Shown: positions 8,972 through 23,340 of the stretch, piece after piece
How positions within the stretch are numbered: position 1 is the stretch's first letter
Layout: every line of letters begins with the position of its first letter
From: an uncultured Candidatus Saccharibacteria bacterium
Lineage (GTDB): Bacteria; Patescibacteriota; Minisyncoccia; Phycocordibacterales; UBA9973
Assembly: GCA_964401705.1 (NCBI GenBank)
Contig: CAYNZJ010000001.1
Location: 3,648 to 67,647 of the forward strand
Reading direction: 5' to 3'
DNA length: 64,000 nucleotides
Notes under the pieces: generated by a model
The model's input: only the letters and a program-made list of their open reading frames with translations
What the model was told of the DNA's origin: nothing
The model's database searches: none
Translations under genes and position numbers: made by a program

Positions 8972-9859
8972 ATGGAAACAAATTCAAAAACAAAAATCGA
9001 CATCTACGAAATGGTAACAGATCGTATTATTCAAAAACTCGAAGAGGGAATTATCCCTTGGCAACAACCCTGGACAGAAGCAGGCCTTCCTAAGAATTTA
9101 ATAACTCAGAAAGCCTACACCGGAATTAATGTCCTTCTCCTTGCATCTATGGGATTTGCTCGTAACTACTTTCTAACCTTCAAACAAATCCAAGAATTAG
9201 GAGGTTCTGTAAACAAAGGCGAAAAATCCATCCCAGTTATTTTTTGGAAGTGGTCTGAAAAAGAGGATCCGCAAACCAAAGAACTAAAAAAAGTCTCAAT
9301 GATACGGTACTATACTGTATTCAATGTAGACCAATGCACCGGAATACCCGAAGACAAGATACCTAAAGTTGTAAATAACAACTGTGAGATTGAGATGGGA
9401 GAGCTTGAAGCTATTATTGAAGAAATGCCAAACAAGCCACTAGTTCGCCATCTTTCATCTCAGGCCTATTATCACCCCAAGGAAGACTATATCAGTATGC
9501 CAATGATGAATGTTTTCAAAGATGCTGAAAGCTATTGGGGAACTCTATTCCATGAACTGATTCACTCTACCGGTCACCAAAGCAGACTTAACCGTAAAGA
9601 AATTGTTGAATGGACTAACTTTGGTTCTGAATCTTACTCCCAAGAAGAACTAGTTGCAGAAATCGGTGCTTGTTATCTTAAATCCCATTGTGGTATTGAT
9701 ACCAAACACTTTGAAAACAATGTTGCCTATATCCAAAACTGGCTCACTAAACTAAAGAATGACAAGCGGTTTATAATCTTCGCCAGTGCTAAAGCACAAA
9801 GGGCGGTGGATTATATATTACAGAAGGTACCTGTTGAAAAAGAGACAGTAGAATTTTAG
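8972..9859 (+). CDS. ardC: ArdC-like antirestriction protein (N-terminal ssDNA-binding DUF1738 + zincin-like metalloprotease)
   Basis: VTDRIIQKLEEGIIPWQQPW...YTGINVLLL...FLTFKQIQELGG, plus an HExxH motif (LFHELIHSTGH). Confidence 0.75.
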   Translation: METNSKTKIDIYEMVTDRIIQKLEEGIIPWQQPWTEAGLPKNLITQKAYTGINVLLLASMGFARNYFLTFKQIQELGGSVNKGEKSIPVIFWKWSEKEDPQTKELKKVSMIRYYTVFNVDQCTGIPEDKIPKVVNNNCEIEMGELEAIIEEMPNKPLVRHLSSQAYYHPKEDYISMPMMNVFKDAESYWGTLFHELIHSTGHQSRLNRKEIVEWTNFGSESYSQEELVAEIGACYLKSHCGIDTKHFENNVAYIQNWLTKLKNDKRFIIFASAKAQRAVDYILQKVPVEKETVEF

Positions 9860-9915: not shown

Positions 9916-10221
9916 TCAATCATTTTTTTCCATAGAGTAGCTAAAATCATACCAACCCTCTATTGTCATATCTCCTGCAAATCTCTTTTCTAATGTTGTA
10001 AGAAAGGCATCTTTTGCCTTATCAGATGCTAACATTAAAATATCATCCATGTAACTGCATTTTATAAAATACATATTTCCTTTAGATGTTGTTCGCATCG
10101 TACCTGTAAATCCGCCCCATTCTTGAAGTTCAGTAATTGACTTATATACACAATAGACATCGTTATAATCTTCAAGTTCAACTGCGTTAATCCATTCATT
10201 AAAATCTGTAATTGTTGCCAT
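9916..10221 (-). CDS. hypothetical protein
   Basis: ORF; start placed at MATITDF. Confidence 0.3.
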   Translation of the reverse strand: MATITDFNEWINAVELEDYNDVYCVYKSITELQEWGGFTGTMRTTSKGNMYFIKCSYMDDILMLASDKAKDAFLTTLEKRFAGDMTIEGWYDFSYSMEKND

Positions 10222-10304
10222 ATTAAAATAAAATATCAAAAACGAAGGTAATTAATATAAACGAGGATAATAATAATTAAATATAAAATCGATAATTTTA
10301 TCAA

Positions 10305-10328
10305 TTTGTTTGCAAATAGTTTGCAAAT
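10305..10328. promoter_or_regulatory. tandem palindromic TTTGCAAAT boxes (11-nt spacing), copy 1
   Basis: tttgtttgcaaatagtttgcaaat. TTTGCAAA is its own reverse complement. Same arrangement at 10525-10548. Confidence 0.45.
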
Positions 10329-10340
10329 CGTTCCAAATTA

Positions 10341-10364
10341 AAAGGGGTTTCATTTCTGAAACCC
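10341..10364 (-). terminator. rho-independent terminator immediately after tRNA-Leu fragment 3' end
   Basis: aggggtttcatttctgaaacccct is a perfect 10-bp stem, followed by a T-run on the minus strand. Confidence 0.5.
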
Positions 10365-10368
10365 CTTG

Positions 10369-10426
10369 TGGTGCGGATGATAGGACTCGAACCTACACGC
10401 CGCAAAGCACCAGATCCTAAGTCTGG
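10369..10426 (-). tRNA. partial tRNA-Leu(UAG), 3' portion only (anticodon arm, long variable arm, T-arm, acceptor 3' strand + CCA); probable att site
   Basis: Reverse complement reads CCAGA-CTTAGGA-TCTGG-TGCTTTGCGGCGT-GTAGG-TTCGAGT-CCTAT-CATCCGC-A-CCA. The matching 5' acceptor strand (GCGGATG) and D-arm are absent upstream. Confidence 0.55.
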
Positions 10427-10524
10427 CAAAATATGGTTTCATATGGTTTTATATGAATTAATATGTGTTGAATATCAGGTAATTATAATTTTATTGCCAT
10501 AAATGAAACCAAATAAAAGTAATA

Positions 10525-10548
10525 TTTGTTTGCAAATGGTTTGCAAAT
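10525..10548. promoter_or_regulatory. tandem palindromic TTTGCAAAT boxes, copy 2, directly upstream of integrase start
   Basis: tttgtttgcaaatggtttgcaaat ends 12 nt before the ATG at 10561. Confidence 0.45.
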
Positions 10549-10560
10549 TATCTTTGTGAT

Positions 10561-11787
10561 ATGGCTTTCAGTGTTCGAATAGTATTAGATGATAGAAACC
10601 GAAAAAGGGATGGTTTTCCGTTGGTCTTAAGAATTATCGCAAATCGCCATAGTACTTCGATTCCATTGGGTTTATCTTTAGAACTGAATGAATGGAACGA
10701 AAAAAACCAAACAATCCGTACTTCCTGTCAAAAGTTATCGAATGTGACCAGAGAGAATGCTAAGATAACTAAAAAGAGCCAAGAAGCATTTGAGATACTA
10801 TCCCAATTGGATGAAGATGGTGAACTCACCAAAATGAGTATCTCAGATATTAAAAAACGCATCCTAAAAGAAAATAAGCCGACCTTGCTAAGTGATTATA
10901 CAAAAGAAATAATCTCCGAAATGAAGGCTACTGGTAGACTTGGTAATGCCAGATCTTACCACGAATTCTTGCAATGGGTAATAAAATACAACGGGACAGC
11001 AGATATTCCTTTGGAATATTTAACACTGTTATGGATTAAAAAGATGGAACAGAAGTTTTTATCAGCAGGGAATTCGATTAATGGTCTTGGCGTTAAACTT
11101 CGATCCTTAAGAGCTCTTTTAAATAGAGCTATATCGGAAAACTTATTTTCTAAAGAATCCTATCCTTTTAGTCAGTATAAAATAAAAAAACAGGAAACCG
11201 CAAAAAGGGCATTACCTAAAGCTGCAATAACCAAACTTATTAATACACCTATTGAAACTGACCAAATACTAGAAAGGACCAGACGTATATTTCTAATCTC
11301 ATTTTATATGCGTGGAGCCAGTTTTTCGGATATCTGCTTTTTAAAAGTTGGCGATATTAATGATAACCGTATTTACTACAACCGGAGAAAAACTTCAAAA
11401 CTATATAGCATATCTATTTCTGAGCCATTAGCAGAACTTCTTAAACATTTTACCAAAGGAAAAACGGGTAACGATTTTATTTTACCATTTCTAAAAAAGG
11501 AAATGACTTTAGAACAAGCATACTCAGTTTCAAGGTCTGCTCTCGGTGAATACAATAAGAACCTTCGATCACTGGCAATGCATTTTGAGATAAAAGCTGA
11601 TTTCATGTCAACAAATACAATAAGGCACTCTTTCGCATCACTTGCTAGAGATTCAGGCGTGGATGTATCGACTGTTAGTAAAATGCTTGGCCACAGTGAT
11701 TTAAAAACAACTCAAATTTATCTCGCAAGTATAAGCGATGAAACTATCGATGAAGCGTTTGAAATGGTAATGGGTAATTTGGCTTAA
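10561..11787 (+). CDS. int: tyrosine-type site-specific integrase
   Basis: C-terminal catalytic box IRHSFASLARDSG...LGHSDLKTTQIYL (HxxR ... Y). Confidence 0.8.
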   Translation: MAFSVRIVLDDRNRKRDGFPLVLRIIANRHSTSIPLGLSLELNEWNEKNQTIRTSCQKLSNVTRENAKITKKSQEAFEILSQLDEDGELTKMSISDIKKRILKENKPTLLSDYTKEIISEMKATGRLGNARSYHEFLQWVIKYNGTADIPLEYLTLLWIKKMEQKFLSAGNSINGLGVKLRSLRALLNRAISENLFSKESYPFSQYKIKKQETAKRALPKAAITKLINTPIETDQILERTRRIFLISFYMRGASFSDICFLKVGDINDNRIYYNRRKTSKLYSISISEPLAELLKHFTKGKTGNDFILPFLKKEMTLEQAYSVSRSALGEYNKNLRSLAMHFEIKADFMSTNTIRHSFASLARDSGVDVSTVSKMLGHSDLKTTQIYLASISDETIDEAFEMVMGNLA

Positions 11788-11821
11788 CCTCAATTGCAGA
11801 TACTAAAGTAAATATTTAATT

Positions 11822-12100
11822 TTGACGGACATGGAAATAATATGTCTGGAATCAGATGCGCTCTATAATCTCGTTGAAAAGGTTGTTGAAAGATTGAAGT
11901 TACTGGATGGAGTCGCTCAAGAAAAGTGGATATCTGATGTTGAAGCCATGCGAATTTTGAACATAAAATCAAAAACAACCTTACAACATCTTCGCGATGA
12001 TGGAAGTCTAAAATACTCTCAACCAATGAAAAAGGTGATTCTTTACGATAGAGAATCTATAAATGAATATTTAGAAAAACACTCAAAAGATAAATTTTAA
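11822..12100 (+). CDS. xis: excisionase-like HTH (HTH_17) DNA-binding protein
   Basis: WISDVEAMRILNIKSKTTLQHLRDDGSLKYSQPMKKVILYDRESINEYL fits the excisionase-family HTH pattern. Sits directly after int. Confidence 0.5.
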   Translation: MTDMEIICLESDALYNLVEKVVERLKLLDGVAQEKWISDVEAMRILNIKSKTTLQHLRDDGSLKYSQPMKKVILYDRESINEYLEKHSKDKF

Positions 12101-12101
12101 A

Positions 12102-12389
12102 ATGGAAGAACTAGAAGTAACTCCACCGGAACAATATTTAAAAGGATTTAATAAAGGATATAGTTTTTCAAAAACATATCCTGATGCAGGTCAGCAGGTA
12201 TTAGATATTTTTTCTTCTCAAACTAACCTTTCCAGTGAAAATGACTTTACCTCAGTTACTGGTATGATTGATGGAATTAATCAACATAAAATTGAACAAG
12301 AAAGAGAATTGATAAATGAAAGCTTGGAGGATATCAAGGATTTACGAAATCAACAGGCTGAGGAAAAGTCTCCTGACCTAAATATTTAG
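12102..12389 (+). CDS. hypothetical acidic protein
   Basis: ORF only. Confidence 0.25.
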   Translation: MEELEVTPPEQYLKGFNKGYSFSKTYPDAGQQVLDIFSSQTNLSSENDFTSVTGMIDGINQHKIEQERELINESLEDIKDLRNQQAEEKSPDLNI

Positions 12390-12475
12390 TATAGTAAAAT
12401 AATAATGATACAAGAAGAGGATTTGTCGGTTGGAGAATCGGCAGAAAGCAATATTGTATTGAGGCTAATGCCATG

Positions 12476-12504
12476 ATAGGACTGATTTCAGTCCTATTTT
12501 TTTA
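12476..12504 (+). terminator. rho-independent terminator; also contains 11-nt direct repeat of the tRNA-Leu fragment (ATGATAGGACT)
   Basis: ataggactgatttcagtcctat hairpin followed by ttttttt. Confidence 0.5.
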
Positions 12505-12557
12505 TTTCATGGTTGTGTCTCTAGATGGCTTCTACTCAAAAACAAAATGCTATATTT

Positions 12558-14033
12558 TTATACCATTGGTTGAAAATCTAAATAATATTTAGCATTAAGT
12601 TCATTTTCAAATAAACATACGTTATTTTCATAAAAAGTTATGGTTGAGTAAATAGGATTTAAACATATATTACCTTCACTAGTTAATGCGCCCATTTTAT
12701 TATTATTTTTGATGAGTAAATAGAATAAATGTAGTTTTCTTTTTTTAAAATTTACAACTCTTTCATAATCAATAACACTTGTAACCATTTCATTATTGTT
12801 TTTATCGAACCCAACCACTTCTTTTGTAAATCCAAGATTTTTGAGAAAATATGGTTGCTTTTTAGGTGAATCTAAAAGCATATTACCAAATATGCCAAGA
12901 ATTTCAAATTTTGTCGATTTGGTTCCAACAATTTCTCCGTTAAACAAGTATAGCTTGTCATTTTTAATAAATAGAAATATTTTCTTATTATTCATAGAAT
13001 AAAAGGTGAGACAAAACTCGAAATCAATCTTTATTACATATTTTAAATCATCACAATCCTTAAGATACTCTGTTAAAAAAATATCTCCAACGATAACGGG
13101 TTTATCATTTTGTTTTACTTCCTCAATTGAAACACTCTTTTGAGTGTCTAAAACAATTTTGTTATAAAATGTGGGTTTAATTTCAAGGGAATCCTTCTTT
13201 TGTTTATCTTTTACAAGTAAATGATTAGCTTTATTAGGAACCTCACTAATAGACTCTATGGATTTATTTTTTGCTAACTGATATTTTACTATTTCTTGAT
13301 TTAAGGCATTATTCTTCGTATTGAGTGAATTAATTTCCTTCTGCAAATCTTGTTTTGATTTTTCAAGACCAATAATTGAATTATTGAGATTTTTTAGTTC
13401 AACCTTATTGTTTTTCTCGATCTCACTATTTTCATTTTTTAATATATGAATTTGGTCCTGCAATACAATTTTTTCATTCGAAAAAGCCATTTTGATTTCT
13501 TCTATTTGCAATTCATACTTCTTTTGGATAAAAGGTTCTTGATAGTTCTTTCTCTGATTTGCCAAATCTCTTATGTTTAATTCGTTTAAAAAAGTAGAAA
13601 GTTTACTTGATTTTTCAAAATCAAAATGCACAAGAGCCTTAGGGATTTTTATATTAAATTCAAGTTTAAAAAAATTTAAAATATGTTCATAAATTAGCTG
13701 TTCTATTTGATTAATTTCTAACTGCTTAGACTTTTTAATGGGTTTAGAAGAAACTTTATGAGTTGAGTTATTTCGATATTTTCTAAATGCTTGCAGGATA
13801 TTTTTATTCTTCACATAAAACGAATATTTCACATTTAATTCGCCTAAAGACTGCATCAACATAAGGTTGTCATAATAGAACTTATTACTATTACCTTCTT
13901 TTAAAAAGACCTGTGTTTCAGCTATCTTTTCACAAACTAAATGTAAAGCTTCTTTTTTGTCCTTATCAATCTCACTTGAAACCGATATATGGAAAGCCAA
14001 TAAAATTTCTTTTAATTGTTCATAAATATTCAT
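12558..14033 (-). CDS. hypothetical protein, N-terminal domain + central coiled coil + C-terminal beta-rich domain; translationally coupled to RtcR-like regulator
   Basis: Its start overlaps the stop of the upstream regulator by 14 nt. Long heptad-like stretch (EIKMAFSNEKIVLQDQIHILKNENSEIEKNN...). No motif I recognise. Confidence 0.35.
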   Translation of the reverse strand: MNIYEQLKEILLAFHISVSSEIDKDKKEALHLVCEKIAETQVFLKEGNSNKFYYDNLMLMQSLGELNVKYSFYVKNKNILQAFRKYRNNSTHKVSSKPIKKSKQLEINQIEQLIYEHILNFFKLEFNIKIPKALVHFDFEKSSKLSTFLNELNIRDLANQRKNYQEPFIQKKYELQIEEIKMAFSNEKIVLQDQIHILKNENSEIEKNNKVELKNLNNSIIGLEKSKQDLQKEINSLNTKNNALNQEIVKYQLAKNKSIESISEVPNKANHLLVKDKQKKDSLEIKPTFYNKIVLDTQKSVSIEEVKQNDKPVIVGDIFLTEYLKDCDDLKYVIKIDFEFCLTFYSMNNKKIFLFIKNDKLYLFNGEIVGTKSTKFEILGIFGNMLLDSPKKQPYFLKNLGFTKEVVGFDKNNNEMVTSVIDYERVVNFKKRKLHLFYLLIKNNNKMGALTSEGNICLNPIYSTITFYENNVCLFENELNAKYYLDFQPMV

Positions 14034-15570
14034 CTACATCCTTCAAATATTTTTTAAGAGTGTTTATTGAACCGATCCCTAGTGCTTTTTGGGCTTTTGA
14101 CAAATTTCCATTAAAAATGGCTACTACGGATTTAACATGTGCTTTTATAACTTCATTTAGTTTTAACGATTTAATATTAAGGTTCTTAACTCTCTCAGGA
14201 AGATTTTCGGTGTCTATTATTTCCAAGCCGAATGCATAAAATCTTTCCACAATGTTCTGTAATTCTCTAATATTCCCAGGCCATGAGTGATTGTATAGAA
14301 TTTTCATAGCATTAGGAGTGAATTCAAGAAGTTTTCTTTTACTACCCATTTCATTTTGGAATCTAGTATTGAAAAAGTTTAACAATGCTTTTATATCGTT
14401 TGTACCTCGCTGTCTCAAAGGTGGTAAAGAAATTTCTGCAACAGACAATCTATAGTATAAATCCCAACGGAAACTTCCTTTTTCGCATTCTTCATAAAGA
14501 TTTTTATTAGTCGCAGCAATAATTCTCAAATTAATTTTTTCTGAATTCGTACTTCCAACCTTTTGTATTTCACCTTCTTGCAATACCCTGAGTAGTGCAA
14601 TCTGCATTTGAGGATTTATGTCGCCAATTTCGTCTAAAAAAATTGTTCCACTATTGGCCGAATGAAAATAGCCATCTGTTGTCTCTATGGCATTGGTAAA
14701 TGCACCTTTTACATATCCAAACAACCTACTTTCTAATAAATCTGGACTAATCGCTGCACAATTCACGGTAACATACGGGCTATTATATCTTGAAGAATTT
14801 TTATGAATAAACTTTGCCACATGTTCTTTTCCAGTGCCGGTTTCACCTTCAATTAGAACAGTAGTTTTTTGAGTTAACGCAATTTCTTTTGCTAACTTAT
14901 AAACTGGTATGATTTTATCTGTGATGCAATAATTATCAAGGTCTTCTTCTGCTGATTTCTTATTTCTGGGTTTTACTAGATTCTCATGAATTATTAGAAA
15001 ATCAGTAATTGTTGAACTGCTAAATTGAATTTGAACCAAATTTGGATTTCCTGTTCCAGTATCTTCTTTTTTAATAGTTTGGAACAATCTAGTGTTTGCC
15101 TTAAACTCCATATGGAGCATATACCATACAACTTGCATAGTTGGAGTTCCTGGGGACACAAAAAAATCAATGTTAAATTGTTTAAATTCCAGAATCAAAG
15201 GGTAAAGAGCAGCATGTATTAAGTTAAAGTTTATGACATCTTGTGGCGCTAAGGCCATATAACGCAATTCAATTTGATGGAGTGGAAATGATTTTTTTAA
15301 TGTTGAAAACAAAGTTAGTCCTTTGGTGTATTCCTGACTACTTGACTCAGTTGATAGAAGAATGTGTTTGTCATAACCTTTAAAAAAGTGCTGATGAAAA
15401 CTATATGTTGGACCATTAGTATTAATGCGATTATTTTCAAAATCATTAGTTGCTGCTAACCACGAAATGAGAATTTTCGGCATATTTAAAATTAGAAAAA
15501 TCAAATCTATTATCAAATTTTGATAATTACAAGCAGATAATGAATACGAGCATTTCCAAATCAGAATCAT
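14020..15570 (-). CDS. RtcR-like transcriptional regulator: CARF-like N-domain + sigma54-interaction AAA+ domain (GAFTNA variant) + Fis-type HTH
   Basis: Walker A GETGTGKE, then ESRLFGYVKGAFTNA, WPGNIRELQNIVER, and a C-terminal LSKAQKALGIGSINTLKKYL HTH. The N-domain segment FVSPGTPTMQVVWYML..TRLFQ resembles E. coli RtcR HITTGTHVAQICWFLL..ARLIQ (from memory). Confidence 0.7.
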   Translation of the reverse strand: MILIWKCSYSLSACNYQNLIIDLIFLILNMPKILISWLAATNDFENNRINTNGPTYSFHQHFFKGYDKHILLSTESSSQEYTKGLTLFSTLKKSFPLHQIELRYMALAPQDVINFNLIHAALYPLILEFKQFNIDFFVSPGTPTMQVVWYMLHMEFKANTRLFQTIKKEDTGTGNPNLVQIQFSSSTITDFLIIHENLVKPRNKKSAEEDLDNYCITDKIIPVYKLAKEIALTQKTTVLIEGETGTGKEHVAKFIHKNSSRYNSPYVTVNCAAISPDLLESRLFGYVKGAFTNAIETTDGYFHSANSGTIFLDEIGDINPQMQIALLRVLQEGEIQKVGSTNSEKINLRIIAATNKNLYEECEKGSFRWDLYYRLSVAEISLPPLRQRGTNDIKALLNFFNTRFQNEMGSKRKLLEFTPNAMKILYNHSWPGNIRELQNIVERFYAFGLEIIDTENLPERVKNLNIKSLKLNEVIKAHVKSVVAIFNGNLSKAQKALGIGSINTLKKYLKDVDEYL

Positions 15571-15935
15571 ATTTTAGATATCGTACTTGTTAAAATCAAA
15601 AAAGTACCTTGTATGGTTTGAAATGGGAAACAAACTTAAATATTGAATAAGGATAACCTTTTTGCAAAAAGTAAATAAAAAACCCCCTCATATGTGAGGA
15701 GGCCGAAGATTTTTCAACAGTGTAAGTAGCAATTGCCTCTAACCTGATTAATGATCGCGATTCACCAATCAGAGGTACCAGGTTCATCGGGTACTGGTAT
15801 ACATACAATCATAAAGAACATCTTCGTAGGAGCCTTGCATAAAGTATAGCATAAAGTTATTTAAATGTCAAGATTAATTAATTGTAAATCAATTATATAC
15901 AGTGAAATGCTTATTAGAATTACGAAAAAATAAAA

Positions 15936-15955
15936 ACCCTCAATTTTAATTGAGG
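15936..15955 (-). terminator. hairpin + T-run on minus strand (possible terminator of a minus-strand non-coding transcript)
   Basis: ccctcaattttaattgaggg is a perfect 9-bp stem. The minus-strand reading is followed by tttttatttttt. Confidence 0.3.
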
Positions 15956-15967
15956 GTAAAGAATTTG

Positions 15968-16130
15968 TTGATGTAGAAGCCTCAGAATTCACCATGCCTC
16001 ACGCCTAAGACTGGATGTAAGATAAGGAGGGCCACCAACGCCCTTTTGACATCAATGTTGATGTAGAGGCCTTTAAGATTTGCCATATAAATATGGTTGG
16101 GTTAAACAAAAAGGGCCACCAATCATTGTA
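15968..16130. repeat. two ~17-nt direct repeats TTGATGTAGARGCCT, each followed ~85 nt later by AGGGCCACCAA
   Basis: Seen at 15968 and 16056; one copy lies within the palindrome ACATCAATGTTGATGT. Confidence 0.4.
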
Positions 16131-16373
16131 ATAGTCGAAGAACTAACTCTTTGTTCAATTGTAGCATATTTGATATTATTTGTCAAATAATGATAATAAA
16201 AGTCAATAAATGAATACAAATAAAGAATAAATTTCACATTGCCATTTTTTAATGTATTGATTATGAGTAATATGTATTTTATTTAAAATTAGGTAACCAA
16301 TTTGTATTTTCTAAAGCAAAATTGATTTAAACCCAAACTAACAAATCTCAATTAAAACTCAAAACGTAAAAAC

Positions 16374-17516
16374 ATGGAAAACAAAAACACAATCGTCTAC
16401 ACAAACTATCACCATGAAGGAATTGACAACTACCTCGCATCATGGAAAAAACAAACTTCATCAGAAGTGCAACTAAAGGCGAAAACCAACGCCGGAAAGA
16501 AATTACCGAAAGCTATCGGTGATGATTTTAAACGGTACATTGGTTACTTTAAGGAAAAAGCTCAGGAATGTCTTCGAGACATAGATCGAATCTTAAAAAT
16601 CACTCCTGTTTTATTCAAGATCAAACAATTACGCGATAAACGCGATGAGATGGTCTTTAAAGCTAATGGAAAAAAGGAGGAGTTGGAATCAAAATCTGTT
16701 TCGCTCAATCCTGATGCCAATCACGCCGAACACAAATTAGTTAGAGCCGGTTCCATAATCGCTTTACTTATTCTTGTACTACTAAGCACAGCAGAGACCT
16801 TTCTGTCTTACAAACCGTTCTATTATCTAACAGGTAACAAAGTTTCCACCTGGACTATTTGTATTGTATTCGCAATACTTTGGATAATCGGAGCCGAGAA
16901 ATTTTCTAAGTTCATCAAAGATCAAGCGATTACAAAAAAAGGTATCAAACTTTTCTTTATTATCATAGCCTGCACCTTTGTATTCTATAGCATCGCCCAT
17001 TTACGTGTTTTAGAGAAAGCTTGTTCACGAGCTATTTTAAACGAAGAACCAATCCCAAGCTTTTTTGCTATCAACTTTACTGAAGCTTTAGTCCTTACAG
17101 GAATAGGCTGGGTGTTTTTCATCGGTGGGGTTTGGGTTTCTCAACTATCGCCATCTATTCAAGAAGTTAGGCAAGCCCTGATCCAAAGATTTAACCGAAG
17201 GAAGGCATTAAAAATTCAAAAGGAAATCTTACTTCTACAAGCTGAAATTGACGCAGAAAACGAAAAAATAGCCAAAGAAGAGCATGCAGCCATTTCTCTC
17301 TTAAATATACGTAAGCAGGCAATTAAGGAGGTTGTAGGCTATCTAGAATTCCTTTGCGAGGAGTACAAGGAGGTTAACTATTCATCACGTGTTGATGGTG
17401 TTTACCCCGACTGCTTTAACGAAAAGGTAACTTATGACATGGATACAATTGTACCTAATATCAAGGAAGATCTGGAATTTCAAATGGATAACGCTAACGC
17501 ATCTAAACTTAAATAA
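16374..17516 (+). CDS. hypothetical polytopic membrane protein with C-terminal coiled coil
   Basis: Several predicted TM helices (IIALLILVLLS, WTICIVFAILWIIG, LFFIIIACTFVFYSI, LVLTGIGWVFFIGGVWV). Confidence 0.3.
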   Translation: MENKNTIVYTNYHHEGIDNYLASWKKQTSSEVQLKAKTNAGKKLPKAIGDDFKRYIGYFKEKAQECLRDIDRILKITPVLFKIKQLRDKRDEMVFKANGKKEELESKSVSLNPDANHAEHKLVRAGSIIALLILVLLSTAETFLSYKPFYYLTGNKVSTWTICIVFAILWIIGAEKFSKFIKDQAITKKGIKLFFIIIACTFVFYSIAHLRVLEKACSRAILNEEPIPSFFAINFTEALVLTGIGWVFFIGGVWVSQLSPSIQEVRQALIQRFNRRKALKIQKEILLLQAEIDAENEKIAKEEHAAISLLNIRKQAIKEVVGYLEFLCEEYKEVNYSSRVDGVYPDCFNEKVTYDMDTIVPNIKEDLEFQMDNANASKLK

Positions 17517-17518
17517 TT

Positions 17519-18217
17519 ATGAAGACACTAATATTTACATCACTCATTCTAATTCTAATTGGATGTTCAGAAAACAAAGGAATTATCGAAAAGGAAGTCG
17601 TCTGTGTCATTGATGGCACAGATACTACCATCCATAAACCATCATTCAAAGAAATCAAACCCTTTTTGAATTTAACCGACAATGATTTTGGGTTGGTCTT
17701 TAAAACTAAAATGATAGGGGATATTGATTTCGGAAATTCTTTCGAGCTAAGTTTAAGCCCCAAGGATTATAGTATCGACGAAACCATTGAAGATCGGTTT
17801 TTCCGAAAAAAGAAGTTTTTAAAACATGCTCAGGCCGGATATTTAAAAGTTTCCTCCACCGCAACTCCTAAGGATCACTCAATAATTTATCGGGTAATCG
17901 CCAAGGAACTTAATAAGTTATCAGGTTCAAAAGCCAAACAGCGTACCTTGTTGGTAAACTCAGATCTTATGGAGAATTCAAAGGAACTTAATTTCTATAA
18001 TCCGAGACACTATAGCCTACTAATGAACAGCCCATGTGAAGTGGAGAAATTACTTATTAGACAATTGAAATTAATGGATTTAAAAGGCATTGAAGTTTAT
18101 TTCCTTTTTCAGCCAAAAGATTTCTATCAGAACGATACGTACAAAGCAATCTTGGACATTTATATCAAGATAATTAGCGAGGCAGGCGGGGTTTGTAAAA
18201 TCGGTAATGAATCTTGA
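17519..18217 (+). CDS. hypothetical lipoprotein
   Basis: Signal peptide with lipobox MKTLIFTSLILILIGC. Confidence 0.35.
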   Translation: MKTLIFTSLILILIGCSENKGIIEKEVVCVIDGTDTTIHKPSFKEIKPFLNLTDNDFGLVFKTKMIGDIDFGNSFELSLSPKDYSIDETIEDRFFRKKKFLKHAQAGYLKVSSTATPKDHSIIYRVIAKELNKLSGSKAKQRTLLVNSDLMENSKELNFYNPRHYSLLMNSPCEVEKLLIRQLKLMDLKGIEVYFLFQPKDFYQNDTYKAILDIYIKIISEAGGVCKIGNES

Positions 18218-18267
18218 CAATTTCGGCTTGAAAAGCGAAAATGTAACTACAGAAGTATCAGAATTAA

Positions 18268-18297
18268 AACGGGGATTGGAATTCATTCCCCGTTTTA
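18268..18297 (+). terminator. rho-independent terminator
   Basis: aaacggggattggaattcattccccgtttt. Confidence 0.45.
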
Positions 18298-18329
18298 TCT
18301 TAAACAATCGAATAATAGAATAATTATAA

Positions 18330-18506
18330 ATGGCTCACAAACAACATAGCGGTGGTATCGGCAACTTTCTATTGGGGGCAATAAAATTTATCGTGAAAGT
18401 CATATTTAGAATATGTGTTTTAGTATTGGTATTCATCGGTAAATTAATTGTCGCAATACTCGAAAAGATTATAGAGGTGGCGGAACACAAACATAATAAA
18501 CACTAA
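18330..18506 (+). CDS. small membrane protein (58 aa; not in supplied ORF track)
   Basis: MAHKQHSGGIGNFLLGAIKFIVKVIFRICVLVLVFIGKLIVAILEKIIEVAEHKHNKH. Sits directly upstream of the coupling-protein gene. Confidence 0.25.
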   Translation: MAHKQHSGGIGNFLLGAIKFIVKVIFRICVLVLVFIGKLIVAILEKIIEVAEHKHNKH

Positions 18507-18518
18507 CCAAATAAACAT

Positions 18519-19952
18519 ATGTTAGATATAATCGAAAGTCTATTCAAATTAATCTTCGAATTAATAACGGAGATATTCAAGGTTATTTTTAATGTCGCAC
18601 CGGATAAAAAAACCAAACTTGATGCAGGGTTTATGAAGGTAAGCAAATTGCTTTCCAGTTGGAATAAAGGGTTTTGTTTAAATGGAACTAAACATATTGG
18701 AATTAAGGCTAGCCATACATCTTGTCTTGTCCTCGGAGGAAGTGGCTCCGGCAAAACAGTATCAGTCTGTATACCAACGATTTATAATTTAGCCAAACAT
18801 GGACATAGCATTACTGTCCATGACCCATCGTCCGAATTGTATAATAATGTATCTGGCTACCTAGAATACTTAGGCTATTCAATAAAAGTAGTAAATTATT
18901 CAAATCCTAATATTTCAGATGGCTTTAATCCGATGTATCGCCTAAAAAATAGTGCCTCTGAAACACAAAAATTAGCATCGCTATTGGTACGAAATTCAAT
19001 GGGTGAAAATAACAAGGATCCGTTTTGGCAAACACAAGCATCATTACTTATTTATTTGATTATGCGAGTGTTGCAACACAAAAGCCACTGGTATCAAAAT
19101 TTAGCTAATGTAAAGAGGGTTCTGGACAATATGACAACCAAACCGGAAGCAATGGATATTTTAGTTGCGGAATGTAGAGATGAATCAATTTTATCGGAGT
19201 ATAAAAACTTTCTAATATTAGATAAGAAGCTGTATACCAGTATTATAAGTAGTGCAAGAGCCGCTTTATCCATTTTTACGGACCCTTTGGTTCAGACAGT
19301 AACGGCTTACGATAGTATTGATTTTGACTCTTTTCGGAAAGAAAAAACTGCCCTTTTTATTAACAACAAAACCGGAGATATCAAATACTATTCAGCGCTT
19401 TCATCTGTATTTTTTGAGCAGTTTTTTTCAAGTATAATGGATAAACTACCAAGTAAAGAGGATAAAAATATCTTCTTCATTATTGACGAGTCATCCTCGC
19501 TTTATTTACCATCAATGCAAATTGCTTTAAGCAACCTCAGAAAGTACAAGGCTGGAATAATGAATATTGCGCAAGACTTTAATCAGTTCCATATTTACGG
19601 AAGTCAAGAGGCAGAAGCAATTCGGACTAATTCATTTGCTAAAATATATTTCCCAGGACAACCCCTCAATACCGCCCAGGAATTAGAAAAATTACTTGGA
19701 TCTTTTGAATTTGAAGATGAGAAAGGCAATCGAAGAACTAGACCTCTTATGACCATAGATGAGATTCGGGCAATGGAACCGAATACAGCTTTAATTGTTG
19801 CTGGTTCTAATCGCGCAGTATTTACCAAGATGAAACCTTATTTTAAATCCTATAAGTATAAAAACTTATCAAAATACGCATTACCAGAAAGGCAGAGCCA
19901 AATACCCTTTGAAGAACTTCCATTAATACCATTACCAAATAAAATCAAATAA
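18519..19952 (+). CDS. type IV secretion coupling protein-like ATPase (VirD4/TraG/TraD family), lacking N-terminal TM region
   Basis: Walker A GGSGSGKT and Walker B IFFIIDESSS, with the usual spacing for this family. Confidence 0.6.
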   Translation: MLDIIESLFKLIFELITEIFKVIFNVAPDKKTKLDAGFMKVSKLLSSWNKGFCLNGTKHIGIKASHTSCLVLGGSGSGKTVSVCIPTIYNLAKHGHSITVHDPSSELYNNVSGYLEYLGYSIKVVNYSNPNISDGFNPMYRLKNSASETQKLASLLVRNSMGENNKDPFWQTQASLLIYLIMRVLQHKSHWYQNLANVKRVLDNMTTKPEAMDILVAECRDESILSEYKNFLILDKKLYTSIISSARAALSIFTDPLVQTVTAYDSIDFDSFRKEKTALFINNKTGDIKYYSALSSVFFEQFFSSIMDKLPSKEDKNIFFIIDESSSLYLPSMQIALSNLRKYKAGIMNIAQDFNQFHIYGSQEAEAIRTNSFAKIYFPGQPLNTAQELEKLLGSFEFEDEKGNRRTRPLMTIDEIRAMEPNTALIVAGSNRAVFTKMKPYFKSYKYKNLSKYALPERQSQIPFEELPLIPLPNKIK

Positions 19953-19974
19953 TTCCACCTTTTAAATATTCAAA

Positions 19975-20418
19975 ATGAAAACAACGAAATCAAATATCAA
20001 CAAAGATGATGTTCTAGTTAGAGCATCCTTTGAACTTTTTAATATGAAAGTTAAAGAGACCGAATCTGAACTATCAAAAATTGAAGTTGAACGTAATGAT
20101 ATTATTCAATCCATAACCAACTCAGAAACTGGAATAGCTAGTGACATTGAACGGTCACGACTTGATGAATTATCTGAGCGGGAAGCAACCCTTCATGAAA
20201 AATGGAATGACCTTGAACTGTCCTATCAAGTTGGTAGTCTGAGTGAATCTATTCAACAAGAAGACCAACAACCCACTAATGAAATAGAAGATCAATGGTT
20301 TGAAGATTCCAAATCTGAATATACTGAATCAGAAATTGAAGAGACAATGGATGAATTGAACGAAATAAGAGATGCTCAGTTATCGCAAGAACATGAACTG
20401 GATATGCCAGATTTTTAA
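19975..20418 (+). CDS. hypothetical acidic protein
   Basis: ORF; rich in Glu/Asp. Confidence 0.25.
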   Translation: MKTTKSNINKDDVLVRASFELFNMKVKETESELSKIEVERNDIIQSITNSETGIASDIERSRLDELSEREATLHEKWNDLELSYQVGSLSESIQQEDQQPTNEIEDQWFEDSKSEYTESEIEETMDELNEIRDAQLSQEHELDMPDF

Positions 20419-20433
20419 TTTTTACAACACTCA

Positions 20434-20880
20434 ATGAAAAAAATCCGAAGCACAGAACTCTTTAAATTCCTTCAGTTGAAGGGGGTTCTTGGTGGTTCGG
20501 ATATCGAAATTAAAAATGCTAAACATCAATATCGGGCAGAGTACAAACGGAAATGGAAACAAGCTCGCCTAAAGATTAAACCAGAACTTAGACCAAACTT
20601 CACAAAAAAAGAAATCGAATCCATCTCAAAAGCTGCCAAAGTTAGAGGCCTTACAAGTACAAACTTTGTTCGACAGTCTGCGCTTAGTCTTGCCTCAAAC
20701 AAAACCCTAATTCCAAATCAGGATAAACTATTAACCATTTTACAGAAATTAAGTATGGCCGGTATAAAAATCTCTAACAAAAAAGGTAACCCATTTTACG
20801 ACCCAGAAGTTAAAGAAGCCGACGACCTGCTTCAAGAAACTGAGAAATTATTGATGGCATACTTAGGTTATGATTATTAA
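20434..20880 (+). CDS. mobC: MobC-like mobilization (relaxosome accessory) protein
   Basis: KIKPELRPNFTKKEIESISKAAKVRGLTSTNFVRQSAL fits the MobC pattern R.....vRlT..E...l...A...G.S.S.y.R. Confidence 0.5.
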   Translation: MKKIRSTELFKFLQLKGVLGGSDIEIKNAKHQYRAEYKRKWKQARLKIKPELRPNFTKKEIESISKAAKVRGLTSTNFVRQSALSLASNKTLIPNQDKLLTILQKLSMAGIKISNKKGNPFYDPEVKEADDLLQETEKLLMAYLGYDY

Positions 20881-21760
20881 GTTATTGTCTCGCCATAGTC
20901 CTTCTTACGGGGGATTGATAGACTATTTACTCAAAGAAGGAAAAGGTGGAGATGACAAAACCCCTGAACCGCTACTTCATAATTTCCGAGGAACCAATAA
21001 AAATGAATGGGTAAAAGAGCTCTGTCAAAACGAAGCCTTTCGAAAAAACCCTCGAAAAGGTCAAATATACTTCCAACACGCTATCCTATCATTTAATAAT
21101 CTTGATTCACAAAACTTAACACCGGAGATATTAAAAGATCTGACTCAAAAATTTATTGAATTAAGAGGAAAGGATGGGATGTATCTAACTGCCCAGCACA
21201 ATGACCGAGATCATCTTCATATACATTGCCTAATTTCAGGACTTAAATTCAAAACTGGAAAGGCTTTTCGCTTGCCAAAAGACAAACTGAAAGACTTGAA
21301 AGTTCAACTTCAGAACTACCAAATAGAGAAATATCCCGAACTCAAAAATTCATTACCAAACCATGGATCTGGAAAAGAATATCTTACACCAAATGAATAT
21401 GGTGCTAAAATTAAAAACTCTAAATCCTATAAAAAATCTGAGCTAGCTCTAAAAATTAATGAGATTCTCAACACTTCAAGCACACAAGAAAATTTCCTTG
21501 AAAAGCTACGAGAGCAAGGCTACCACCATTATGAAAGAGGAGGCAAGATTTATGGAATTACGCTTGATGATAAAAATTACCGGTTTAACACTTTGGGGGT
21601 TAGCTTGGACAAAATGAATTCTTTGCCAAATGATCTAACTCAAGAAGAACAGGCATTGAAGGAAATAAGTGAGTTACGTCAACAGATGGAAACTAAAAAG
21701 GAAATCGAAACCGAACAAGACATTCCCGACGGGGATGAACCACCTTTACCCAATTTATAA
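20870..21760 (+). CDS. MobA/VirD2-family relaxase (mobilization nuclease domain)
   Basis: LLSRHSPSYGGLIDYLLKEGK N-terminal motif and histidine triad QHNDRDHLHIHCLIS (HxDxxHxHxH). Confidence 0.65.
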   Translation: MIIKLLSRHSPSYGGLIDYLLKEGKGGDDKTPEPLLHNFRGTNKNEWVKELCQNEAFRKNPRKGQIYFQHAILSFNNLDSQNLTPEILKDLTQKFIELRGKDGMYLTAQHNDRDHLHIHCLISGLKFKTGKAFRLPKDKLKDLKVQLQNYQIEKYPELKNSLPNHGSGKEYLTPNEYGAKIKNSKSYKKSELALKINEILNTSSTQENFLEKLREQGYHHYERGGKIYGITLDDKNYRFNTLGVSLDKMNSLPNDLTQEEQALKEISELRQQMETKKEIETEQDIPDGDEPPLPNL

Positions 21761-22593: not shown

Positions 22594-23340
22594 ATGATAA
22601 TCGCATACCATCAAGGTATGGAATCAATTGAAAACTATAGCAAAGGCACCATCGCTTATTCATGCCGTATCATAAAAAACTTTTTCGAGTATATCTCGGA
22701 TTGTAATATTGAATGCCTAAATCCAAAACAAATCCGGTCACTAAAATACGTTCAACCGGATAAAGATATAATGACTTCAAGTCTTTTAAAAAGAATGGAC
22801 AATGAATTGAATGAACAATTTTATGAAGACCTAATCATAAAGTTGATGGTTCATATTCTATACGATACTGGTATGCGTGTATCTGAACTTTGTGATTTGG
22901 ATATTTCAAATCTTGAAGAAACAGATACGCCAGGCTTGCGCTGTGCAACCATTCGACGTCGCAAAAGTTTGCGATACAACACGGTTGTATGGGGAAAGGA
23001 AACAAACCGCTTGATGAATCTTTATTTAGGATTAAGGTTATGTTTGGATGTAAATCAAACAGACGCCTTATTTGTAAATAGGAAATCAAAAGGGAACAGG
23101 ATAACGACTAGAACCGTTCAACGATGGATAAAGGAAATTTGCATGCGAGCAAATATTCAAGAGAATATAACACCGCATAGTTTTAGGCATGGTAAAGCCC
23201 ATCAGGTTTTAAACCAGAGTGGTAATGTTAGAGATGTGCAAGCAATCTTAGGCCATGTAAATCCGGCTTCATCATTTAGTTATCTTTCGTTAAACCGTCA
23301 AAGTCAGATATCCGTGTCAGGGAAGTACTTGCCTTCTTAA
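22594..23340 (+). CDS. tyrosine recombinase (XerD-like; possibly N-terminally truncated or frameshifted relative to ORF 22380-22631)
   Basis: HSFRHGKAHQVLNQSGNVRDVQAILGHVNPASSFSYL catalytic box. N-terminus YSKGTIAYSCRIIKNFFEYIS resembles the core-binding domain. Confidence 0.65.
   Translation: MIIAYHQGMESIENYSKGTIAYSCRIIKNFFEYISDCNIECLNPKQIRSLKYVQPDKDIMTSSLLKRMDNELNEQFYEDLIIKLMVHILYDTGMRVSELCDLDISNLEETDTPGLRCATIRRRKSLRYNTVVWGKETNRLMNLYLGLRLCLDVNQTDALFVNRKSKGNRITTRTVQRWIKEICMRANIQENITPHSFRHGKAHQVLNQSGNVRDVQAILGHVNPASSFSYLSLNRQSQISVSGKYLPS

Follow-up and report, generated by a model that had tools for sequence, protein, structure and literature searches.

RtcR activates the rtcBA RNA-repair operon in Escherichia coli and Salmonella, and the binding of a ligand drives its oligomerisation (PMC7790460; PMC9879122). 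RtcR-like proteins built of a CARF sensor domain, an AAA+ ATPase and a helix-turn-helix (HTH) domain, and unlinked to Rtc, have been seen beside restriction-modification (R-M) systems (PMC4012209) and at the head of CoCoNuT superoperons (PMC11090510). These non-Rtc regulators are known only through comparative genomics, mostly as presumed defence regulators; the family as such, and the logic that joins CARF to HEPN domains, are already known. Here, we analysed a stretch of 64,000 nucleotides (the window) of contig CAYNZJ010000001.1, in which the gene of an RtcR-like regulator overlaps the gene of a second protein, its partner, within an integrative mobilizable element (IME). We found that the regulator is a conserved backbone gene of a Bacteroidota IME family and that the partner, a predicted HEPN protein, occupies an accessory slot beside it. 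The backbone role, the candidate operator, the putative sigma54 promoter of related elements, the HEPN partner family and the small RNA (sRNA) cassette reported below are not described in the searchable literature or catalogues.

The pair lies among the following genes of the element:

10561..12389, plus strand: integrase (408 aa), Xis-like HTH_17 protein (92 aa) and conserved protein of 95 aa, transcribed towards the partner gene (open reading frames (ORFs), HTH_17 match, synteny)
12558..14033, minus strand: partner coding sequence, 491 aa, with predicted HEPN domain, coiled coil and WG-like beta domain
14020..15483, minus strand: RtcR-like regulator coding sequence, 487 aa (ORF, PADLOC RtcR_PspF2--CARF_AAA_HTH profile, homologue starts)
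16374..21760, plus strand: divergent transfer operon encoding a 380-aa membrane/coiled-coil protein, a 232-aa lipoprotein, a type IV coupling protein (T4CP, 18519-19952), small proteins and a relaxase (20870-21760) (ORFs, Pfam Relaxase, synteny)

The regulator is thus flanked by integrase/Xis genes on one side and by the T4CP/relaxase operon on the other, with an 800-bp intergenic region between it and the plus-strand operon. The T4CP was assigned from the T4CP domains in homologous loci, and the relaxase from its Pfam Relaxase match. The same backbone surrounds the close regulator homologues (50-62% identity; loci L001-L005, L023 and L024), and also distant ones with CARF domains 38-40% identical (L012, L017 and L020, from metagenome-assembled genomes of Chitinophagales, Sphingobacteriales and other Bacteroidota). 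In L002, L003, L005, L012, L017, L020, L023 and L024, the regulator gene and those of the lipoprotein and T4CP homologues are transcribed divergently. Genome and metagenome scans with the CARF alignment returned only distant relatives (32-41% identity), and the close clade is represented by a few Logan and JGI contigs only. The 380-aa protein and the lipoprotein, a signal peptide followed by Cys (together 16374-18217), matched no Pfam family and precede the T4CP in all related elements. As the initial annotation had stated, rtcBA is absent beside the regulator; none of rtcA, rtcB and rsr was found near it, and no cas families were found among its neighbours in the contexts read.

In contrast to this backbone, the gene that follows the regulator varies. 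Its product has 491 aa in the window and 425 aa in L002; L003 has a TPR protein of 643 aa in this place, and L005 has proteins of 303 and 95 aa, and in L012 nothing co-oriented follows the regulator. Because the backbone is constant while this gene changes, the partner occupies an accessory slot and the regulator belongs to the element core. The pair is therefore not simply carried as cargo, as had been proposed, the regulator being present where the partner is absent or different. The L003 (643 aa, TPR) and L005 (303 aa) partners are not counted as further HEPN proteins, since HMM, hhalign and Pfam comparisons gave no detectable homology to the HEPN N-domain. On the other hand, the expectation that the pair would recur elsewhere was borne out: every homologue of the partner N-domain with readable context sits directly downstream of an RtcR-like regulator, in the order regulator then HEPN gene, in L001, L002, L021/L022, L023, L024 and L025. 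In L021/L022, the upstream fragment ends in the WPGNIRELQN...HTH sequence of the regulator; L026, cut at the gene start, lay outside this assessment. L001 and L002 both come from sample SRR14932642, the former being a near-identical copy of the window element (98-99% protein identity) and the latter a second, diverged element of the same family.

Both minus-strand ORFs of the initial annotation (14020..15570, 516 aa; 12558..14033, 491 aa) were present, as were the 14-nt overlap of the regulator stop with the partner ATG, the translational coupling, and the quoted motifs, namely Walker A GETGTGKE, GAFTNA, WPGNIRELQNIV and the C-terminal HTH. The length of 516 aa, however, is that of the maximal ORF, which extends to 15570. 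For the regulator, the ATG at 15483 is the most likely start (487 aa), because about 120 full-length homologues begin at, and align from, MxKILISW. An operator-like conserved dyad falls inside the 29-codon extension of the maximal ORF. The domains of the regulator are as follows:

14913..15483, minus strand: CARF (RtcR-type) sensor domain, about 190 aa, with an invariant SPGTxTMQxxW loop (NCBIfam RtcR, PF06956, Cas_Csm6_CARF, invariant columns)
14182..14904, minus strand: sigma54-interaction AAA+ domain and lid (Pfam Sigma54_activat 1.9e-62, AAA_lid_14 3.4e-17; ZraR and NifA alignments)
14689..14706, minus strand: L1-loop motif GAFTNA, a GAFTGA variant (sequence; column counts in 121 homologues)
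14044..14103, minus strand: Fis-type HTH, LSKAQKALGIGSINTLKKYL (aligns to the HTH of ZraR, 1ojl; the PADLOC profile reaches residue 512)

Profile searches agreed with the proposed CARF identity of the N-domain over the full length of the protein. PADLOC profile PDLC01995 (RtcR_PspF2--CARF_AAA_HTH) aligned at its positions 2-478 of 481 with residues 32-512 (E 1.3e-128), and positions 2-444 of the NCBIfam RtcR model (NF038308) aligned with residues 30-469 at 276.2 bits. PF06956 RtcR matched the N-domains of 10 of 14 clade members (best 2.4e-5; the window's own, 0.021), and Cas_Csm6_CARF those of 8 of the 14. A word-based search with the CARF domain alone gave a single match. P0002, which carries a precomputed PF06956 assignment, is 40% identical. 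The CARF-domain profile had no matches among PDB sequences. The AAA+ core and Fis-type HTH stood as annotated, with Sigma54_activat (PF00158) and AAA_lid_14 matches and a core 45-50% identical to those of ZraR and NifA. The N-domain is thus a predicted RtcR-type CARF, and the whole a predicted RtcR-like CARF / sigma54-type AAA+ / Fis-HTH one-component protein. It is not RtcR itself, because its 276 bits compare with a curated equivalog cut-off of 650 bits for NF038308.

The partner had been described as having an N-domain, a long coiled coil and a beta-rich C-domain that could not be recognised. The layout held; both terminal domains, however, could be given an identity, a HEPN fold at the N-terminus and WG-repeat-like segments at the C-terminus:

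13644..14033, minus strand: predicted HEPN-fold N-domain, with the RNNSTH motif (R87..H92) at 13758-13775
13266..13571, minus strand: long helix / coiled coil, approximately residues 155-256 (single-sequence AlphaFold2 (AF2))
12561..13136, minus strand: beta-rich C-terminal domain with WG-repeat-like segments (exhaustive HMMER matches)

The partner gave no profile matches in Pfam, NCBIfam or PADLOC, and a word-based homology search found only one copy, 98% identical. An exhaustive HMMER search of 1.84 billion representatives found ten matches. Seven of them (P0001, P0123-P0126, P0129 and P0130) have the N-terminal ~160 residues in common, and the other three (P0127, P0128 and P0131; E 1e-4 to 7e-4, residues 411-482) match the C-terminus only and are all PF14903 WG_beta_rep proteins. 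With an alignment of the seven N-domains, AF2 modelled this domain with pLDDT 89 and pTM 0.85, and the model has the four-helix HEPN fold; the single-sequence model of the whole partner had pLDDT 40 and was uninformative beyond the coiled coil, where the helix is continuous (pLDDT 72-89 over residues 200-250). RNNSTH, at residues 87-92, matches the Rx4-6H motif of HEPN domains in its RNxxxH form; in the same alignment, all seven sequences have R87 and N88, and six have H92. Different family members gave weak matches to HEPN families of Pfam (HEPN_RiboL-PSP 3.4e-4, HEPN_Swt1 0.016, DUF4145 0.019), and the N-domain profile had no meaningful match among PDB sequences. After the HEPN domain, four of the seven homologues have a single transmembrane (TM) helix and a variable domain, and others have TPR or helical domains; the TM-linked domains are presumably extracytoplasmic and the HEPN domain cytoplasmic. 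From sequence and modelling, the partner is a predicted HEPN-domain protein with a variable, sensor-like C-terminus and a predicted RNase activity, and it belongs to a very rare family of HEPN proteins, held by no searched catalogue and strictly linked to RtcR-like regulators.

The intergenic region contains two candidate binding sites of the regulator:

15510..15526, no strand assigned: perfect dyad TTATCA-N5-TGATAA, located 27 nt before the start codon of the regulator; candidate upstream activating sequence (UAS) or operator
16180..16196, no strand assigned: second copy of the dyad, with one mismatch; it overlaps the -35 hexamer in the promoter of sRNA-1 (see below)

The first is the sole perfect TTATCA-N5-TGATAA in the window. 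The exact 17-bp dyad was rejected as a cross-locus conserved site, and just the looser core ATCA-N5-TGAY is conserved: it occurs in the 50 nt that precede the regulator start in L001-L004, L018, L027 and L028, and as two tandem copies in L013, L030 and L020. In 469 kb, 10 of 15 regular-expression matches to the dyad are no farther than 50 nt from the start of a regulator gene or from a small-RNA promoter. This distribution suggests that the dyad is a candidate regulator-binding site, either a UAS or an operator.

In four related elements, the same region also contains a canonical TGGCAT-N5-TTGCA element, 84-108 nt upstream of the regulator start and directed into the divergent operon (minus strand, locus coordinates: L012 9893, L013 4806, L020 9908, L030 4815). 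These are four of the nine sites that score at least 10/12 in 382 kb. The dyads lie between this sigma54 promoter and the regulator start, in tandem in L013, L030 and L020 and as one clear dyad in L012, and are 35-55 bp upstream of the promoter. The regulators of L012, L013 and L020 read GAFTGA, and the upstream region of L030 is identical to that of L013. The operon of L020 encodes a 158-aa protein, then proteins of 473, 193 and 121 aa, a homologue of the 380-aa protein, a lipoprotein, T4CP, relaxase and ArdC, and that of L013 opens with a Dam-type methyltransferase. As this layout of promoter and dyads matches that of textbook enhancer-binding proteins, the transfer operon is the likely target of the regulator in elements that have the sigma54 promoter. 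In L020 (9992-11421), the regulator is split into overlapping ORFs, 9992-10450 and 10339-11421, either because the gene is a frameshifted pseudogene or because of an error in the assembly.

Two candidate small RNAs are also encoded between the regulator and the transfer operon of the window:

15672..15871, minus strand: candidate sRNA-2, with promoter TTGACA-17-TATACT (15871..15843), body of about 165 nt, and terminator hairpin 15704..15681 followed by a U-run (minimum free energy (MFE) z-score -2.8)
15926..16186, minus strand: candidate sRNA-1, with promoter TTGACA-17-TACAAT (16186..16158), body with internal direct repeats (about 226 nt), and terminator 15957..15936 (MFE z-score -2.2)

Their promoters are the two best sigma70-type matches in the 4.6-kb neighbourhood, each 11/12 with an extended -10, and both terminators are strong. 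The predicted RNAs themselves would span about 16151-15926 (sRNA-1) and 15836-15672 (sRNA-2). A -35/-10 promoter of the E. coli type is unusual in Bacteroidota. The cassettes follow one design, a promoter, an RGTTCTT box 10-25 nt past the -10, a variable body that sometimes has long internal repeats, and a terminator, and this design is conserved, whereas the sequence of the body (89-267 nt, with a maximum of two long internal repeats) is not. Cassettes lie upstream of the regulator in L002, L003, L005, L012 and L023, and between the regulator and the HEPN gene in L024 and L025. Among 13 candidates, the 5' end pairs with the pre-terminator segment better than shuffled controls (mean z -1.3), and the listed pairing p-values, combined by hand with Fisher's method, gave approximately 1e-4. 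The intergenic RNAs had no family matches in Rfam, Y RNA included. In L012, the putative sigma54 promoter would read antisense over the small-RNA gene. By analogy with RteR and similar RNAs, the small RNAs may be counter-transcripts to the leader of the transfer operon.

The reading that we favour, tentatively and at somewhat less than an even chance, is that of a two-gene IME operon in which an RtcR-family transfer switch is joined by an accessory HEPN RNase as an input or effector. The regulator would be the transfer switch of the element, gated by a ligand at its CARF domain that, by analogy with RtcR, would be an RNA fragment ending in a 2',3'-cyclic phosphate. The partner would be a metal-independent accessory RNase coupled to a sensor, and would supply or amplify this ligand, its cleavage products (of tRNA or of the adjacent small RNA of the element) feeding the CARF domain, with the partner as writer and the regulator as reader. 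The earlier idea of a regulator-effector pair, possibly an anti-phage or stress module, is kept in part: a HEPN partner fits a regulator with an RNA effector, whereas the pair is not simply cargo, and relatives are wired to the transfer operon.

Several observations weigh against this two-gene transfer operon. The link from HEPN to CARF is purely one that we infer, and in many elements the regulator does without a HEPN partner; moreover, the histidine of RNxxxH is missing in the homologue P0125. No rpoN is encoded in the window. GG-N10-GC was found neither in 15484-16400 nor in 12000-12600, and the window, like its closest relatives (L002, L003, L005, L023 and L024), has no canonical -24/-12 promoter in the stretch that separates the regulator from the divergent operon. 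An adjacent sigma54 promoter likewise went undetected for many relatives outside the IME clade that have the canonical GAFTGA. The initial annotation had named a nearby canonical rtcBA with a sigma54 promoter as contrary to its reading, and neither was found at the locus; a scan of the whole window for -24/-12 sites gave 33 matches, with 34 expected by chance. A GG-N11-GC near-miss (GGATAACCTTTTTGCA), about 168 nt upstream of the regulator start, was discounted for its wrong spacing.

The regulators of this clade might have lost sigma54 coupling, and act as DNA-binding repressors or activators at sigma70-type promoters, their own and that of sRNA-1, with the HEPN protein as a co-regulator. Apart from the missing GG-N10-GC, the positions of the dyads, at the 5' region of the regulator and on the -35 of sRNA-1, point in this direction. 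So does the drift of the motif: 13 of 19 close-clade sequences have a GAFTGA variant, whose fifth residue is S, N or D, and the motif of L002 is GAFNNA, while among the 121 homologues the wider family is overwhelmingly GAFTGA or GSFTGA. The threonine of GAFTGA is critical for sigma54 contact, as in PspF, and GAFNNA is without it. The missing promoter and the drift are compatible with loss of coupling, without proving it, because variants of the fifth position function with sigma54 in Desulfovibrio vulgaris, where GAFTDA, GAFTHA and GAYTDA regulators have sigma54 regulons (PMC4641369), because L005 and L024 have no sigma54 promoter either despite a canonical GAFTGA, and because a sigma54 target elsewhere in the genome is possible. 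For a G to D change in this loop, whether the interaction is lost has been stated to be unknown (PMC10714721). In addition, the Walker A motif, DE residues and arginine fingers of the regulator are all intact. The claim that GAFTNA is a change known to abolish coupling is thus not established, also because the same partner family pairs with GAFTGA regulators. We regard the loss of sigma54 coupling in the clade as unlikely, if well short of negligible. For the window alone, the kept dyads, the undetected -24/-12 promoter and the GAFTNA loop make it possible, and no firmer than uncertain, that within the two-gene transfer operon the output has been rewired to autoregulation and control of the sRNA promoter; alternatively, the regulator may have a sigma54 target elsewhere.

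A tie between GAFTGA variants and the HEPN partner was ruled out: HEPN-paired regulators carry GAFTNA, GAFNNA, GAFTSA and also the canonical GAFTGA, the last in L024 and L025. The GAFNNA regulator of L002 (6001-7446, P0004), a close homologue, likewise pairs with a HEPN partner.

Alternatively, the pair could be a stand-alone defence or abortive-infection cargo, in which the CARF domain senses RNA fragments or nucleotides of infection, the regulator induces, and the HEPN protein is a toxic RNase. CARF with HEPN is the classic sensor-effector logic, and the partner has the HEPN fold with the catalytic motif. RtcR-like CARF regulators head HEPN-containing superoperons (PMC11090510) and accompany R-M systems (PMC4012209). 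In L006 (1-5861), a more distant RtcR-like regulator with an integrase nearby is divergent from genes for a 163-aa protein, an AAA_15/AAA_21 ATPase and type I R-M, a layout known from the literature as the defence-island context of this family. However, the regulator is kept in the backbone whatever its partner, and in relatives it is wired to the transfer operon. Moreover, the HEPN gene either shares a transcript with the regulator or follows a small-RNA cassette, instead of standing behind a regulator-dependent promoter, the partner has no PADLOC match, and the variable C-domains and membrane anchoring of its homologues resemble sensors more than toxins. Stand-alone defence is thus less likely than a transfer switch, and we think it rather improbable on the whole.

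More doubtful still is a PspA-like role of the partner as an anti-activator or adaptor, in which its coiled coil or HEPN-like domain would bind the AAA+ or CARF domain of the regulator, its C-domain would sense a signal, and the HEPN domain would be non-catalytic. Translational coupling, which implies matched stoichiometry, fits this well, as do the long coiled coil and the constant N-domain with C-domains that vary (WG-like, TPR, or TM with an extracytoplasmic part). The homologue without the histidine, P0125, also fits, and the CARF domain of RtcR is itself regulated by the protein partners RtcA and RtcB (PMC9650030). Contrary to this role, R87 and N88 do not vary and H92 is found in six of the seven sequences, which points to a conserved active site, and neither Pfam nor NCBIfam gave a match of the partner to PspA or another adaptor family.

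A chain of RNA-cleavage signalling like that of Ire1/RNase L, and owned by the mobile element, deserves a similarly low credence. The HEPN RNase would cut the small RNA of the element or tRNA, the CARF domain would read the 2',3'-cyclic-phosphate fragment, and the regulator would switch the transfer operon and/or the antisense sRNAs that gate it; the RNase would be soluble in some elements (WG/TPR) and membrane-anchored with an extracytoplasmic domain in others.

A type III-like toxin-antitoxin (TA) system of small RNA and HEPN protein that stabilises the element, with the regulator as a bystander, is very improbable: although L024 and L025 have the ToxIN order of promoter, structured RNA, terminator and HEPN gene, and the small RNA lies always upstream of and co-directional with the HEPN gene, save for L021 with its cassette downstream, cassettes also occur in elements without a HEPN partner (L003, L005 and L012), a short tandem repeat array is absent, the bodies are unconserved, and in the window the regulator gene separates the small RNA from the HEPN gene.

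The surroundings of the element gave further observations. On the integrase side, a 25-nt direct repeat, ATTTGTTTGCAAAT(A/G)GTTTGCAAAT, occurs at 10304-10328 and 10524-10548, upstream of the integrase gene (10561), and holds the palindrome TTGCAAA-N3-TTTGCAA; these repeats may be integrase/Xis arm sites or an operator. A direct-repeat search for att sites gave nothing convincing. Between the convergent 95-aa and partner genes, a strong plus-strand hairpin with a T-run (12475-12498), without a U-run on the minus strand, is probably the terminator of the int-xis operon. An ArdC-type anti-restriction protein is encoded at 8972-9859, just outside the integrase end, and a short integrase-family ORF (248 aa, DUF3435 match) at 22594-23340, past the relaxase gene, which suggests neighbouring or tandem mobile elements.

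The locus offers wiring that can be tested, with a conserved dyad, the putative sigma54 promoter of relatives, and the T4CP/relaxase operon as the likely target. If the transfer switch is real, a signal of RNA damage or a nucleotide signal, read through CARF, could gate horizontal transfer in Bacteroidota. The sRNA cassette with its E. coli-type promoter and the HEPN family are two additions absent from the searched catalogues.

Of the known systems, RtcR is similar in its divergent CARF domain, NtrC-type AAA+ domain and HTH, its profiles aligning from the first residues, and in the layout of relatives, where the regulator gene is divergent from a sigma54 promoter that the regulator presumably activates. 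In contrast to RtcR, the regulator of the window falls below the equivalog cut-off, has no rtcA, rtcB or rsr nearby, faces a mobile-element operon as its target and has a GAFTNA loop. Closer are the non-Rtc RtcR-like regulators (Makarova 2014; the CoCoNuT-associated ones of Bell 2024; PADLOC RtcR_PspF1/2), to whose family PDLC01995 the regulator matches at full length. Those of the CoCoNuT type are likewise linked to HEPN-containing systems, and have been proposed to read cyclic-phosphate RNA ends (PMC11090510). However, CoCoNuT- and R-M-linked regulators stand at the 5' end of defence superoperons or beside R-M genes, whereas that of the window faces the T4CP/relaxase operon of an IME, with a dyad and sRNA cassettes. 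Unlike in Csm6/Csx1 of type III CRISPR-Cas, CARF and HEPN are on separate proteins here, CARF is fused to a transcription ATPase rather than to the nuclease, and the contexts read contain no cas genes.

As in PspF-PspA, an enhancer-binding protein is encoded with a coiled-coil partner, and, in a divergent layout, the UAS overlaps the promoter of the regulator gene itself; PspF, however, has no sensor domain, and the partner of the window has a HEPN domain and no PspA/IM30 match. ToxIN-type III TA differs in its short tandem repeat array and in its downstream protein, ToxN/AbiQ rather than HEPN. As in Ire1/RNase L, the HEPN RNase domain is attached to a sensor that varies, four of the seven partner homologues being built of HEPN, one TM helix and an extracytoplasmic domain; the partner of the window has no kinase domain, and the likeness is an analogy only. 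RteB of the Bacteroides element CTnDOT is NtrC-type. It is a two-component response regulator, whereas the regulator of the window has a CARF input and no kinase. What CTnDOT has in common with the element described here is that, in the same phylum, excision and transfer are controlled by an element-encoded activator and a small RNA, through RteA, RteB and RteR (PMC3809561).

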